Shown here piece after piece: positions 7,750 through 11,657 of a stretch of DNA of 33,639 nt. Numbering within the stretch: position 1 is the first letter of the stretch; each line of letters starts with the position of its first letter. Under the pieces are notes generated by a model. That model had not been told where the DNA came from. It saw nothing but the letters and a program-made list of their open reading frames with translations, and did not search any database. Both the position numbers and the translations under genes were made by a program. Origin of the DNA: a virus (Duplodnaviria > Heunggongvirae > Uroviricota > Caudoviricetes); IMG/VR virus record IMGVR_UViG_2718218449_000004; one strand, 5' to 3'.

Positions 7750-7838
7750 TTGAAAAAAACGGTCAAACGGGGTAACAATATGTTATTGTTGAGGAATTGT
7801 TTGTTATAGTTTAATTTTTATACACGGCAGAAAAGCAT

Positions 7839-9062
7839 ATGAGCATGGTTGAATGGATAAGCCACGAGAAAAAAGATAGCCTGATACTATTTGTACATGG
7901 ATTAAATGGTGGTTTGGAAACATGGAACTTTAATAAAGAAACTTCATTTCCAAAACTATTAGCAGAAGATGAAGACATTGGCAATGTATTTGATATTGCA
8001 TGTTTCAATTATTTCACCAAATTTACACAAACGTATGCTAAAACGTCAGGATTATGGGCTCGTATTTTCTCTAAGAAAAATAAGTTAGAGAGAAATTTAC
8101 CAACTGATGAAATAGCTGAGTTATTGTATACTGAGATTAGGGTAACGCTAAGTGATTACTCTCGAATTATAATAATCGCCCATAGTATGGGGGGGGTAAT
8201 ATCAAAAAATCTAATTCTAAAAAAAGTTGAGCATGAGGAACAATCTAATATAATTGGATTCATTTCGTTAGCAGTCCCTCACTTTGGTGCTAAATTGGCG
8301 AATATAACTTCAATGGTATCTTCAAATGCTCAGTTAGTAGATCTTGGATTGTTAAGTGAAGCGACCGATACGTTGAATAGGCGCTGGATAAATTGTAGCA
8401 AAAAACTTCCTATCACTAGATATGTTTATGGTTCTCATGACACTATAGTTGATAAAAAAAGCGCATTACCGATGGATAGTGAACGAAATAACTCAATTGC
8501 AGTTAATGAAGGGCATAGCTCAATTTGCAAGCCCGAAAACAGCTCGTCTACAGTGTTTGTTGCGGTAAAGCAATTTATTCAGCAGATAAATTTAGAAGCA
8601 CCCAAGAAGATATGTGTTGAGCGTTTTTCTGATGAGAAACAATATGATAATGAGTATTTCGTCTTAAAAATGATTGTCGCAGATATACATCAGGATATCG
8701 CTATGCATGCAAAGGAATATTATTATAATGCTGAGCTTGCGAGAAATATTTTTACGAGTGATTACGATAGGAAACTACTTGGTCATTTGTATTCTAAAAT
8801 AAGGGAGATTTACCAGGAAGAGTATGAGCAATATATCGCGAATTCAATTTCCCCAGATAAATTTATTGCTGCTGTTCATAGACGAATAGCCCAAGAGGAT
8901 AAGTCGTCGTTAGATTCTCTTATAAAAAGTTTAGAAACGATACATAAGAAAGGAATGTTGCATCAACTGGCTAACAAAAATGACAGGGATATTGTCTGGT
9001 CATCTGAAACCAGCGTAGAAACTTTGGAGCAATTACGGCGAGGTAATCATGAAGAAAAATAA
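7839..9062 (+). CDS. Alpha/beta-hydrolase-fold protein (lipase/esterase-like, DUF676/PGAP1-like N-terminus) with a C-terminal helical domain; candidate defence effector (LmuA-like)
   Basis: 407 aa. LILFVHGLNGG near the N-terminus and nucleophile elbow IIIAHSMGG (Ser116); candidate triad Ser116/Asp201/His226. First gene of an AT-rich operon at the tin/old position. Confidence 0.6.
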   Translation: MSMVEWISHEKKDSLILFVHGLNGGLETWNFNKETSFPKLLAEDEDIGNVFDIACFNYFTKFTQTYAKTSGLWARIFSKKNKLERNLPTDEIAELLYTEIRVTLSDYSRIIIIAHSMGGVISKNLILKKVEHEEQSNIIGFISLAVPHFGAKLANITSMVSSNAQLVDLGLLSEATDTLNRRWINCSKKLPITRYVYGSHDTIVDKKSALPMDSERNNSIAVNEGHSSICKPENSSSTVFVAVKQFIQQINLEAPKKICVERFSDEKQYDNEYFVLKMIVADIHQDIAMHAKEYYYNAELARNIFTSDYDRKLLGHLYSKIREIYQEEYEQYIANSISPDKFIAAVHRRIAQEDKSSLDSLIKSLETIHKKGMLHQLANKNDRDIVWSSETSVETLEQLRRGNHEEK

Positions 9063-9561
9063 CTTGCCGTATATTCCTCTTGATGAAGAGTATAGCTTGA
9101 ATTTTGCTATGCTTGCCATTGCTATATCTATATTATCTCATAGCAAAAAAGGAGTGTTATCATTAGATATTAATAAAATACAAATTTTTATGTATCTGAT
9201 AAAAAACCCATCAAAAATTGATTATGCTCTTACAGTTTCGGGGAAAAAGCCTGCTTGTGTCGAGTCCCAGTTAACTTATACAATAAAGAGTTTTTCAACA
9301 AATGTAGATATCTTATTCGACAATTCCAAAGTGAAATATCTTATAAAAATTATGTCATTGCGGGGATTGCTCTCAGCTGAGAAAAAAAATAATGAGAGTG
9401 TTAAATTATTTTTATCTGAAAAAGGTAAGGAATTTGCTAGCTCATTGACTGATGGATATTTTAAAGAAATAAAACGACTATCCGAAGCATTGTTACCGCT
9501 ACAAGCATTGCCTACCTCTAAGTTAAACTCTGTTATAAATCAAGTCTTCAAGGAGAAATGA
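9049..9561 (+). CDS. Small hypothetical protein; middle component of the three-gene cassette (LmuC-like by position)
   Basis: 170 aa; start overlaps the hydrolase stop by 14 nt and its stop overlaps the next start (ATGATG), suggesting translational coupling; GAGGT RBS. No motif recognised. Confidence 0.5.
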   Translation: MKKNNLPYIPLDEEYSLNFAMLAIAISILSHSKKGVLSLDINKIQIFMYLIKNPSKIDYALTVSGKKPACVESQLTYTIKSFSTNVDILFDNSKVKYLIKIMSLRGLLSAEKKNNESVKLFLSEKGKEFASSLTDGYFKEIKRLSEALLPLQALPTSKLNSVINQVFKEK

Positions 9562-11528
9562 TGAAATCATATCTCAATATCAATAGTTTGATTCTTGTTG
9601 GCGTTCGTAAAAACTACGTCACTACTTTTTATAAAGGTCTCAATGTTATCTACGGAGACTCTGACACAGGTAAGTCAAGCATTCTGGAGTTTATTAATTA
9701 TCTTTTAGGTGCTAGCTCTATAGATTTAGCAGATGAAATAAAAACATCAGTAAACTATGCTGCTCTTGAAGTAGTGATCAATGATACTGTATTCACAATC
9801 GTAAGAGATATCTATGATCATAAAAAAGCAATAGAAGTTTATCGTTGTAAGTTTGATGATTTACATAAACATTTTCCGAAAAAATACGCTCCTAATTATA
9901 GCCCATTATCAAATGTTGATGGTGTTTTTTCGGAGTTTTTACTTGATAGTCTTAATTTTCCAAAGATTGAAATTAAGGTGTCTCCTTCTAAAGCTCATTC
10001 ACAGATGCGCAGGTTAAGTTTTAGAAATATATATAAATTTGTTTATGTAAGTCAGGATGATATTGGTAGTAAATCTTTCTTGCGATTGGGTGATTGGTCC
10101 CGCTACGCATTTACGAAAGAAGTTTTTAAATACATGTTCAATGTGTTGGATGAAAGCATCGCCAGACTCCAAGGTGAAATATCTGCAAAAAGTAGTTTAG
10201 TAACGGAATTAAATAGGAAGTATCAGATAATATCTGAATTTCTTCGCGATACAGACTATGAAACGATTGAATCAATTGATGATGAGATTAATAGGATAGA
10301 TCTTGTTTTAGAAGAACTTGTTGCAGGTTTGTCTGCTCTCGATAAAAATATGAAAGCGGATTCCATACAGTATACAGAATTGAAAGATGCTCACAATTTT
10401 ATTTCGCTTAAATACAAAGAGTGCATATTAAATATTACTGCGCTTGAGGATAAGATTGATAAATATTCGCGGTTAAAAAATGACTATGATAATGATATTG
10501 AAAAACTCAAAGCGATTAAAACAGCAAATTCTCGCATTGGTGTATTGGATAAGGAAGTATTTTCCTGTCCAGTCTGTGATAGCCACATTAAAATAGATGA
10601 TTCTGATTTTCCATTTGAAATTTCATCAGAAAAAGATCTTAATGAAGAGTTGAATTCACTTAGTCGACGTAGACGAAATATTAATGACATGATCTCAGAA
10701 ATGTCATTTAAATTAAAAAAAGAATCAGGTTATAAAAAGGAATTAGATGAACGACTTGACGAGTTGAGAGAATTGATTGACGAAGAAAGCCAGTCAATGA
10801 TTACACCATTCTTGACTCAGAGAGATTTTTATATTAAAGAGATCTCAAAAAATGAGAAGGTTAGGGAGCAGTTAGTAAAAGATTTGAAGGTTAGAAACCA
10901 GCAAGAGGAACTGCTTGAAAAGTATCAGGTACTGAGAAAAGATATTGAAGCATTAACTGAACGCTTGGAGGCGTTAAAGAAAAACGCACCTAGCATGGAG
11001 GGCATTTTACAAGGTTTGGGTGATAGATTTAGTCAGTATTTGAAGGGTATTAATATCAAAAACAGAACGGGGATAAAAATCTCTGAAAGCTATTACATTC
11101 CTGTTATAAGAGAAAAAGAATATTTTAAAATAACATCCGGAGGTTTGAGAACTATTTCTTCTATTGGGTATCTTTTGTCTATTCTTGATTATGCAATAGA
11201 TCATAATGTTAACCATCCTTTACTTTTGATATTTGATACGGTTGGCAAATATTTAGGGAAACAGACCAAGGAAAAATATTCAAAAGAAACTCTTGCATTC
11301 GAGGATGACCTTGAGGGAATGTCAGATCCGATGAAGTATCAAAATATTTATGAACAACTATTGAATACAGTTCAAAAAGCAGAAAGAAAAAATGTTCCGT
11401 GCCAGATTATATTAGTTGATAATGATTTGCCTAATTCGTTTTCTACTGGTGAACTTTCGAATATTATCGCTCATTATAGCTCGGTTGGTGAGGACGGTTT
11501 GCCTTTAGGTTTAATTGATGACCTTTAA
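9558..11528 (+). CDS. SMC/Rad50-like ABC ATPase with coiled-coil insert and CPVC zinc-hook-like motif (LmuB-like)
   Basis: 656 aa. Walker A GDSDTGKS (aa 33-40); long charged heptad-like region about aa 190-500; CPVC at aa 337-340 (nt 10566-10577); signature-like TSGGL (aa 526-530); Walker B LLLIFD (aa 555-560). Start may be the second ATG at 9561. Confidence 0.7.
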   Translation: MMKSYLNINSLILVGVRKNYVTTFYKGLNVIYGDSDTGKSSILEFINYLLGASSIDLADEIKTSVNYAALEVVINDTVFTIVRDIYDHKKAIEVYRCKFDDLHKHFPKKYAPNYSPLSNVDGVFSEFLLDSLNFPKIEIKVSPSKAHSQMRRLSFRNIYKFVYVSQDDIGSKSFLRLGDWSRYAFTKEVFKYMFNVLDESIARLQGEISAKSSLVTELNRKYQIISEFLRDTDYETIESIDDEINRIDLVLEELVAGLSALDKNMKADSIQYTELKDAHNFISLKYKECILNITALEDKIDKYSRLKNDYDNDIEKLKAIKTANSRIGVLDKEVFSCPVCDSHIKIDDSDFPFEISSEKDLNEELNSLSRRRRNINDMISEMSFKLKKESGYKKELDERLDELRELIDEESQSMITPFLTQRDFYIKEISKNEKVREQLVKDLKVRNQQEELLEKYQVLRKDIEALTERLEALKKNAPSMEGILQGLGDRFSQYLKGINIKNRTGIKISESYYIPVIREKEYFKITSGGLRTISSIGYLLSILDYAIDHNVNHPLLLIFDTVGKYLGKQTKEKYSKETLAFEDDLEGMSDPMKYQNIYEQLLNTVQKAERKNVPCQIILVDNDLPNSFSTGELSNIIAHYSSVGEDGLPLGLIDDL

Positions 11529-11657
11529 TACTATACATGCATTTTTTTGAATTAGATTGCATGTGGATAATGAGTCTATTTAGTGAAGGGAGGGATTTGT
11601 GAGACGAGACTTTCGATAAAAATGCAACCGCATTAAAATCGCCACATGAAGCGGGCG

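Follow-up and report, generated by a model that had tools for sequence, protein, structure and literature searches.

A probable short type II Lamassu system with a lipase-type effector in the gpA-to-cos hotspot of a P2-like prophage of Escherichia coli O157:H7

Results and Discussion

The stretch of DNA analyzed in this study (33,639 nucleotides, hereafter the window) carries an operon of three genes, a moron that occupies the defence hotspot between gpA and cos/gpQ in a P2-like prophage of E. coli O157:H7. The operon very probably encodes a full abortive-infection system, a short type II Lamassu (ABC-3C) from the clade with lipase effectors. All three components, LmuA, LmuC and LmuB, are present, and each was identified by a match to its own PADLOC family at E-values (1e-52 to 1e-235) that exclude chance. 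A first-pass annotation of the same DNA, made from the letters alone, had proposed a Lamassu or ABC-3C system with a hydrolase effector and asked whether this exact combination had already been catalogued. It has: the proposal was right but described nothing new, since the type is represented in PADLOC and Pfam, the locus is in a published catalogue of the P2 hotspot, an allele of it has been put to the test and validation exists for a homologue.

Operon Layout and Prophage Context

The features of the operon and its surroundings are as follows:

5425-7749: gene A, the upstream neighbour, an ORF with a Phage_GPA domain (Pfam, 8.2e-122)
7750-7838, + strand: gene A-lmuA intergenic region, 89 bp, the presumed native promoter
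7839-9062, + strand: lmuA, effector, 407 aa
9049-9561, + strand: lmuC, small middle component (ABC-3C MC4), 170 aa
9558-11528, + strand: lmuB, short SMC/Rad50-like ABC ATPase, 656 aa
11529-11845, no strand: downstream boundary of the hotspot, with the cos region and the hairpin of the convergent Q gene
11660-11678: GGCGAGGCGGGGAAAGCAC, which we take to be the P2 cos core; the same sequence lies within the P4/P2 inserts of Rousset and colleagues
11825-11842, - strand: terminator-like hairpin of the Q gene (scan for terminator-like sites)
11846-12880, - strand: portal gene Q (annotation), with the terminase beyond it, also on the - strand

The arrangement of three co-oriented, overlapping genes encoding 407, 170 and 656 aa, as described in the first-pass annotation, was borne out exactly by the ORF coordinates, with lmuA, lmuC and lmuB all on the + strand and overlapping by 14 nt and 4 nt, respectively. 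The position that it had given to the operon, the P2 tin/old hotspot, was likewise upheld, given that the Phage_GPA ORF lies on one side and cos and portal Q lie on the other, as at the gpA-gpQ hotspot of P2. The operon shares this position with P2 old and tin, as it would their role as exclusion cargo borne by a prophage, but it is not homologous to them: Old is a single-protein ATPase-TOPRIM nuclease and Tin a single exclusion gene product, whereas the operon encodes three proteins that combine an SMC-like sensor with a lipase. An ORF of 70 aa on the - strand (11464-11676) and the other antisense ORFs of the island were rejected as spurious because they are without support and lie inside or overlap lmuB and cos.

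Identification of the Three Components

LmuA matched the PADLOC LmuA family PDLC03851 over its full length (3.5e-108). Its N-terminal part (approximately residues 1-255) is an alpha/beta-hydrolase, or "lipase", domain, with residues 10-208 matching Pfam DUF676/PGAP1 (4e-09 for DUF676), and residues 265-389 match Pfam PF20284, ABC-3C CTD8 (1.7e-35; 122.5 bits against a cut-off of 27.6). The catalytic residues are the oxyanion pair H20-G21, the nucleophile S116 in the motif AHSMGG, D201 and H226, and all of them were invariant among 40 homologues with identities down to 39%. In the AF2 model the hydrolase domain was confident and the CTD8 part was of low confidence, and the Foldseek matches of the model were monoacylglycerol lipases, esterases and the phospholipases PlaB and PlaF. 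Both the fold and the conserved Ser-Asp-His triad agree with the earlier reading of this protein as a lipase-like alpha/beta hydrolase, and the Lamassu literature counts alpha/beta hydrolases among the LmuA effectors. As such, LmuA is predicted from sequence and model to be an active hydrolase of the lipase type with an intact triad. Our search of the literature found no determined substrate for a Lamassu lipase.

The small middle protein matched PADLOC LmuC PDLC03869 over its full length (1.5e-52) and Pfam MC4 (5e-27), and PGAP names it "ABC-three component system middle component 4", in line with the PGAP names of the proteins of the operon as ABC-three-component proteins. Its gene sits between lmuA and lmuB with its ends overlapping both, which is the type II Lamassu arrangement. 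The DdmABC gene order that had been proposed for the operon proved correct, with LmuA-LmuC-LmuB corresponding to DdmA-DdmB-DdmC.

LmuB matched PADLOC LmuB PDLC03862 over residues 2-656 (1.5e-235). Its length of 656 aa and its CxxC zinc hook assign it to the short Lamassu, in which LmuB has about 600 aa as opposed to about 800 aa. We located a Walker A motif at G33-S40 (with K39), a Q-loop at Q166, a signature motif at T526-S-G-G529, a coiled coil at about 199-326 and 358-498, and a single zinc hook, C337-P-V-C340, at its apex. The first-pass annotation had named Lys39 of the Walker A motif and Ser116 of LmuA (in AHSMG), and both were found at these positions in the translations. The Walker A, Q-loop, signature and Walker B Asp were invariant in 30 homologues, as were C337, P338 and C340 of the zinc hook. 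The Walker B motif is deviant (D560-T561), as a Thr follows the Asp in place of Glu or Gln, and the ATPase cycle may therefore differ. The AF2 model (pLDDT 84.8) is Rad50-like, with head halves formed by residues 1-193 and 515-656, an antiparallel coiled coil between them and the CxxC in the apex loop. Its best Foldseek matches were solved Lamassu LmuB chains (9uxh, 9hqx/9hqu, 9nyg and 9ux7), with Rad50 behind them, so that the SMC/Rad50-like ABC ATPase of the first-pass annotation matches in its fold the ATPase of solved Lamassu complexes. Single-sequence searches of the PDB sequences returned nothing useful for any of the three proteins; only a profile of LmuB reached a solved LmuB, that of Salmonella (9hqu_A, 8.7e-11), with the Walker A, zinc hook, signature and Walker B aligned.

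Some homologues bear names such as "exonuclease SbcC", "GPI inositol-deacylase" and "pimeloyl-ACP methyl ester carboxylesterase", and there were NCBIfam matches to SMC/Rad50 and lysophospholipase models, from which one might suppose that the operon is an SbcC/Rad50-like DNA-repair or a lipid-metabolic gene set. However, the NCBIfam matches were all sub-threshold, those to Rad50, SMC and RecN models scoring 13-52 bits against cut-offs of 300-1000, and no gene for SbcD/Mre11 was found adjacent to the operon in the ORF list or the annotation. Moreover, the effector has a CTD8 domain, which is specific to ABC-3C, and an MC4 gene comes next to it downstream, the operon lies in a prophage cargo hotspot with a foreign GC content, and the best structural matches of LmuB were Lamassu chains rather than SbcC or Rad50. 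A repair or metabolic role was rejected because the matches to such models were sub-threshold and the components are ABC-3C-specific; it is exceedingly improbable, and is already effectively refuted by the PADLOC, Pfam and LmuB fold matches. Of the checks named in the first-pass annotation, the HMM search (PADLOC) and structure prediction both favour Lamassu, and homology searches did not place the proteins in a housekeeping or metabolic pathway. These results also illustrate that the Lamassu architecture is recognisable from raw sequence.

Relationship to Characterized Lamassu Systems

The closest functional counterpart is Lamassu Ec-Lipase, a member of clade H, the short-Lamassu lipase clade defined by Haudiquet et al. 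(PNAS 2025, PMC12663957). Ec-Lipase protects against lambda-vir, and mutation of either the LmuB Walker A (K42A) or the lipase His (H215A) abolishes this protection; its toxicity on over-expression likewise depends on the lipase His (PMC12663957). Like the operon in the window, Ec-Lipase is an E. coli system with the order LmuA(lipase)-LmuC-LmuB and a CxxC zinc hook in an LmuB that is about 600-660 aa long, and both have the lipase catalytic His and the LmuB Walker A Lys. It is, however, another homologue, as judged by its numbering (H215/K42, versus H226/K39 in the window), which fitted none of the 240 homologues that we collected, nor a second E. coli lipase-Lamassu, DETEC-S560 (H225/K38).

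Among systems with solved structures, DdmABC/Vc-Cap4 (PDB 9NY5/9NYG) and Salmonella LmuACB (9HQU/9HQX) have the same gene order and three-component logic as the operon in the window, and their LmuA has a similar layout of an N-terminal effector and a C-terminal ABC-3C CTD. Their LmuB proteins are the best structural matches to the LmuB in the window, yet are only about 14-15% identical to it. The effector differs, being a Ser-Asp-His alpha/beta hydrolase in the window and Cap4, a nuclease of the PD-(D/E)xK type, in these systems, as do the associated domains (CTD8 and MC4 versus CTD7 and MC3) and the Walker B residue (Thr versus Gln in nuclease LmuB). The lethal target would also differ, being presumably lipid for the system in the window as opposed to DNA for the nuclease Lamassu.

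A working mechanism can be carried over from the solved nuclease-type Lamassu complexes and the mutagenesis of the homologous E. coli lipase system. The model of sequestration, DNA-end sensing, release and oligomerisation derives from cryo-EM of nuclease systems and has been explicitly extended to lipase effectors with CTD8/CTD9 (PMC12663957 and further Lamassu literature). By analogy, two LmuB and one LmuC would bind and sequester the CTD8 of one LmuA, so that the lipase domain stays inactive. Foreign DNA ends or replication intermediates that arise early in infection would be sensed by LmuB/LmuC, and ATP-dependent engagement of the LmuB heads would then release LmuA. Free LmuA would oligomerise via CTD8, which would switch on the Ser116-Asp201-His226 hydrolase; published AF3 models show dimers or larger rings, versus the tetramer of nuclease LmuA. 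The hydrolase would destroy an essential component of the cell, most probably membrane phospholipid, and the infected cell would be killed before the competing phage matures.

The lipase clade might depart from this nuclease-type mechanism in that an essentially non-hydrolysing DNA sensor triggers the destruction of membrane phospholipid, and H-NS could hold the operon silent in its natural P2 prophage, with a specific cue needed to lift the silencing. This suggestion, which we regard as a speculative one with the odds well against it, is prompted by the invariant Walker B Thr (Gln in nuclease LmuB and Glu in canonical ABC ATPases), by the predicted CTD8 dimers or larger rings and by the fact that the substrate of the effector is not established. 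Silencing of this kind would explain the negative result obtained with the E. coli B allele, which is described below.

Alleles, Distribution and Expression

The LmuA in the window is identical to WP_000063136, the accession listed in the P2-hotspot Table S5 of Rousset et al. 2022 (PMC9122126) for an entry "DUF676/PGAP1 + hypothetical + hypothetical". In the same study, the "Hydrolase + SMC" allele of E. coli REL606 was placed on a low-copy plasmid together with its native promoter (giving pFR106) and was among the P2 systems for which no defence was detected against eight phages (PMC9122126). This is the same operon in the same gpA-gpQ hotspot, with the same LmuA accession in that table, although it went without a Lamassu name in 2022. 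The cloning primer ACAGACAGCGTGAGTGGTAG corresponds to positions 7730-7749 of the window, meaning that the pFR106 insert took in the gene A-lmuA intergenic region, and 120 of 121 bases of the insert were identical to positions 11465-11585. Whereas the prophage in the window appears complete, that of REL606 has decayed and its portal gene is truncated.

The REL606 allele has 97.3% DNA identity to the operon in the window, with 11, 4 and 17 amino-acid differences in LmuA, LmuC and LmuB, respectively, and with the catalytic residues unchanged. The dN/dS values between the two alleles (0.11-0.21) show that the operon is under purifying selection. At least 84 complete E. coli genomes, most of them O157:H7, carry an operon 100% identical to that in the window, and the operon is also present in the E. 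coli B lineage (REL606 and ATCC 11303). Conversely, neither the operon (megablast) nor LmuA (tblastn) had a match in approximately 50,700 sequenced phage genomes, and the Lamassu lipase operon is thus seen only in prophages of bacterial chromosomes and in no isolated phage of that collection. With an allele that has reached fixation across a large lineage of O157:H7 and occurs in a laboratory lineage of E. coli, the operon provides a convenient natural model for the substrate of the lipase, the coupling of a DNA-end sensor to a non-nuclease effector and the silencing in situ of AT-rich prophage cargo.

The pFR106 result leaves the anti-phage activity of the allele unproven, and the activity of the O157:H7 allele is something that we infer from its intact motifs and its relatives. 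The single test in which an allele gave no anti-phage phenotype could be taken to mean that the operon serves mainly to exclude plasmids or other temperate elements, or acts in prophage maintenance and addiction, and is not chiefly a defence against lytic phages. A type II Lamassu of V. cholerae, DdmABC, does eliminate plasmids and becomes toxic when these are present, and the replication origins and DNA ends sensed by Lamassu are not phage-specific (PMC12663957). We nonetheless judge such a role to be unlikely, as the gpA-gpQ region is a documented anti-phage hotspot (PMC9122126), protection against lambda-vir is on record for the closest relative to have been validated (PMC12663957), and the window holds no pointer to plasmid targeting.

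Alternatively, the operon may be a genuine Lamassu that is transcriptionally silent in situ, for example through H-NS acting on the AT-rich island, and hence latent cargo unless de-repressed. Low-GC islands are typical H-NS targets, and the GC content of the island is 33.2% as compared to 53.1% in the remaining window. The 97% identical allele gave no detected defence under its native promoter, and the term counts of a 2026 preprint, "H-NS silences antiviral immunity...", give BL21 29 times, "P2-like prophage" four times and Lamassu three times. Countering this, the low dN/dS and the intact motifs argue for expression that is frequent enough for selection to act. In addition, the panel of eight phages was small, and Ec-Lipase, for which an inducible promoter was used in place of the native one that alone drove the E. 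coli B allele, is active against lambda-vir only in a narrow expression range (PMC12663957). Silence in situ thus seems to us a serious possibility, if a less than even one, and it is compatible with, rather than opposed to, the assignment of the operon as a Lamassu defence system.

The sole sigma-70-like match in the intergenic region, TTGAAA-18-AACAAT at 7750-7779, is weak, as would suit a silent operon. The promoter scan as such is uninformative, since promoter-like sites upstream of lmuA were not in excess (13, versus 17.2 expected from shuffled sequences). The gene A-lmuA gap also contains an inverted repeat of 7 bp, AACAATA-TGT-TATTGTT, at 7775-7791.

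Identification of the operon as a lipase-type Lamassu system

The three co-oriented, overlapping genes described in the first-pass annotation were found as follows, with all coordinates in agreement:

7839-9062, plus strand: lmuA (ORF1), 407 aa
9049-9561, plus strand: lmuC (ORF2), 170 aa
9558-11528, plus strand: lmuB (ORF3), 656 aa

The lmuA/lmuC overlap is 14 nt and the lmuC/lmuB overlap 4 nt. In HMM searches of PADLOC-DB, a check that the annotation had named, all three proteins matched Lamassu components over their full length: ORF1 matched the effector LmuA (PDLC03851, 3.5e-108), ORF2 the middle component LmuC (PDLC03869, 1.5e-52) and ORF3 the SMC/Rad50-like ATPase LmuB (PDLC03862, 1.5e-235). 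Pfam divided ORF1 into an N-terminal DUF676/PGAP1/LCAT-like alpha/beta-hydrolase domain (aa 10-208) and a C-terminal part matching "C-terminal domain 8 of ABC-3C systems" (CTD8; aa 265-389, 1.7e-35), and identified ORF2 as "ABC-3C middle component 4" (5e-27). These PADLOC and Pfam assignments support the initial reading of the operon as Lamassu / ABC-3C with a hydrolase effector. In NCBIfam, matches to SMC/Rad50/RecN and lysophospholipase families were all far below threshold, which disfavors a housekeeping role.

Whether this combination was already catalogued had been left as a question; it is a known Lamassu subtype, the operon has already been listed and a 97% identical allele has been tested. 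Published work on ABC-3C/Lamassu systems already recognizes alpha/beta hydrolases as one class of LmuA effector, and a Gruber-lab preprint describes [quoted passage not shown]. In P2-like phages, the region between gpA and gpQ was defined as a defense hotspot by Rousset et al. 2022 (PMC9122126), whose Table S5 contains the arrangement "DUF676/PGAP1 + hypothetical + hypothetical", with at least 37 occurrences, and gives for it WP_000063136, the accession that the window LmuA carries too. Lamassu was widened to hydrolase and other effectors by Millman et al. 2022, with members found in the prophage hotspots of Rousset et al.

The tested allele is that of plasmid pFR106, a pSC101 plasmid carrying "Hydrolase + SMC, P2, 3 genes, E. 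coli REL606" under its native promoter (PMC9122126). The first part of its insert agrees with window 11465-11585 (minus strand) in 120 of 121 bases, and the sequence of one cloning primer is window 7730-7749. Because pFR106 falls in the table block containing the systems that Rousset et al. name inactive, and because their main text gives only three other P2 systems as active, with "Hydrolase + SMC" not among them (PMC9122126), we conclude that no defense was seen against eight phages. A second lipase system, the short, zinc hook-containing Lamassu Ec-Lipase of E. coli, was validated by Haudiquet et al. 2025 (PMC12663957): at low induction it confers resistance to lambda-vir, an effect abolished by LmuB K42A or LmuA H215A, and its toxicity at high induction needs H215. 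Ec-Lipase is a homolog rather than the window allele, since the numbering of H215 and K42 differs from that of the window proteins.

Conserved features of LmuA and LmuB

LmuA has 194 homologs at E<=1e-5 across Gammaproteobacteria, including Citrobacter, Salmonella, Klebsiella, Serratia, Yersinia, Pseudomonas, Aeromonas, Shewanella and methanotrophs, and all share the CTD8 plus DUF676/PGAP1 architecture. In an alignment of 40 of these, down to 39% identity, H20-G21, H115-S116-M117-G118-G119, D201 and H226 were invariant; together they make up an oxyanion motif, a nucleophile elbow and a Ser-Asp-His triad of the canonical type. The two residues singled out in the first-pass annotation, Ser116 (in AHSMG) and the Walker A Lys39 of LmuB, were correctly placed. 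Structure prediction, also named there as a check, gave a LmuA AF2 model (mean pLDDT 69.7) with a confident hydrolase domain and a weak CTD. Among solved structures it best matched, with low identity in every case, monoacylglycerol lipases, carboxylesterases and the phospholipases PlaB and PlaF, and on these grounds the modeled fold class can be regarded as settled, as an alpha/beta hydrolase. Membrane phospholipid is the most plausible candidate for the lethal target, given that DUF676/PGAP1/LCAT/PlaB-like relatives act on lipids.

Across 30 LmuB homologs, down to 43% identity, the invariant residues were Walker A G33-S40 (with K39), Q166, C337-P338-x-C340, T526-S-G-G529 and D560. In the LmuB AF2 model (pLDDT 84.8) an antiparallel coiled coil joins the two head halves, and its apex loop holds the CxxC. 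The best solved matches were Lamassu LmuB chains (9uxh, 9hqx/9hqu, 9nyg and 9ux7), with Rad50, SMC and JetC behind, and the LmuB family profile matched Salmonella LmuB 9hqu_A (8.7e-11) with Walker A, zinc hook, signature and Walker B all aligned. This fold match, taken together with the PADLOC Lamassu matches, the Pfam ABC-3C domains and the sub-threshold NCBIfam results, all but rules out a function in DNA repair or metabolism.

In all 30 aligned sequences of the lipase-Lamassu clade, the Walker B Asp is followed by an invariant Thr (D560-T561, window 11235-11240), whereas canonical ABC ATPases have the catalytic Glu at this position and Salmonella LmuB has Gln. An E-to-Q deviation is typical of LmuB according to the literature, and the invariant Thr suggests an ATPase cycle that is still more deviant than described.

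By analogy with cryo-EM structures of nuclease-type Lamassu, in which the stoichiometry is LmuA1:LmuB2:LmuC1, the LmuA CTD would be sequestered by LmuB2-LmuC, in a complex that would bind DNA ends or intermediates of phage replication. When the heads engage in an ATP-dependent manner, LmuA would be freed and would then oligomerize via its CTD and become active. The Ec-Lipase mutants back the same interfaces, and the need for Walker A and the catalytic His, in lipase effectors (PMC12663957). As to the window, the analysis shows only that all parts required by this release-and-oligomerize scheme are present and conserved.

Selection and distribution

The three ORFs are intact and every invariant residue is kept. 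In the comparison with the E. coli B allele (ATCC 11303; 97.3% identical), dN/dS was 0.13 for lmuA, 0.21 for lmuC and 0.11 for lmuB, and the 11 LmuA, 4 LmuC and 17 LmuB substitutions all spare the catalytic and invariant residues, a pattern that fits purifying selection on each of the three genes. A latent, H-NS-silenced operon, which is compatible with the Lamassu reading, would reconcile this selection with the negative pFR106 result. An anti-plasmid or anti-mobile-element role is also possible by analogy with DdmABC, the type II Lamassu of V. cholerae.

PGAP labels the genes "ABC-three component system protein", "ABC-three component system middle component 4" and "AAA family ATPase / SMC family protein", as seen in 96 of the 5,426 complete genomes of E. 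coli, 84 of them at least 99% identical and mostly O157:H7. In ATCC 11303 (NZ_CP140008 1721746-1731648), the 97.3% identical allele lies in a degraded P2 prophage with a truncated portal gene and a partial virion morphogenesis gene, and the three Lamassu genes are intact; in the E. coli B lineage, the defense cargo has survived longer than its phage.

A further lipase-type Lamassu, 54%/44%/52% identical to the window LmuA/LmuC/LmuB, was found in 13 complete E. coli genomes (L002, the E. coli DETEC-S560 locus, 5212-8902; NZ_CP116094). It lies outside a P2 prophage, and its neighbors, which are genes for a type IV coupling protein, MobC and ArdC and a copy of IS903B, suggest that an integrative mobilizable or conjugative element carries it.

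Prophage setting

In essence, the window is the P2-like prophage found beside yegS/yegR in E. coli O157:H7 str. TW14359, from which it differs by 2 mismatches in 23,657 compared bases. Upstream of the operon is:

5425-7749: gene A-type ORF with a Phage_GPA replication domain

Downstream are the P2-type cos core, GGCGAGGCGGGGAAAGCAC (11660-11678), and the portal and terminase genes, convergent with the operon. There is a sharp compositional break, with 33.2% GC in the three-gene island versus 53.1% in the remaining window. The 89-bp gene A/lmuA intergenic region contains a 7-bp inverted repeat, AACAATA-TGT-TATTGTT (7775-7791), overlapping the -10-like hexamer (7774-7779) of the sole promoter-like match (7750-7779); this repeat may act as an operator or have arisen by chance in AT-rich sequence.

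Additional prophage and host features were:

23586-24905: tail-fiber gene H
24905-25507, plus strand: tail-fiber assembly gene
25479-25931, minus strand: inverted alternative assembly gene copy
25943-26356, minus strand: inverted alternative fiber C-terminus
26378-26977: serine invertase (Resolvase + HTH_7, 2.8e-52)
1-900, minus strand: host yegS fragment
1246-1623: host yegR
1888-2901, minus strand: integrase (prophage entry)
3017-3388, minus strand: C-type HTH repressor
3438-3713: cox

Judged from its sequence, window 24400-26977 is an invertible tail-fiber (host-range) segment, at the place where P2 has Z/fun. Its 27-nt inverted repeats (24400-24426 and 26302-26328; 81% complementary), reported inside tail-fiber gene H, resemble Gin/Cin crossover sites. 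The attL junction should lie between about 1623 and 1888, because host yegR ends and the prophage integrase starts there.
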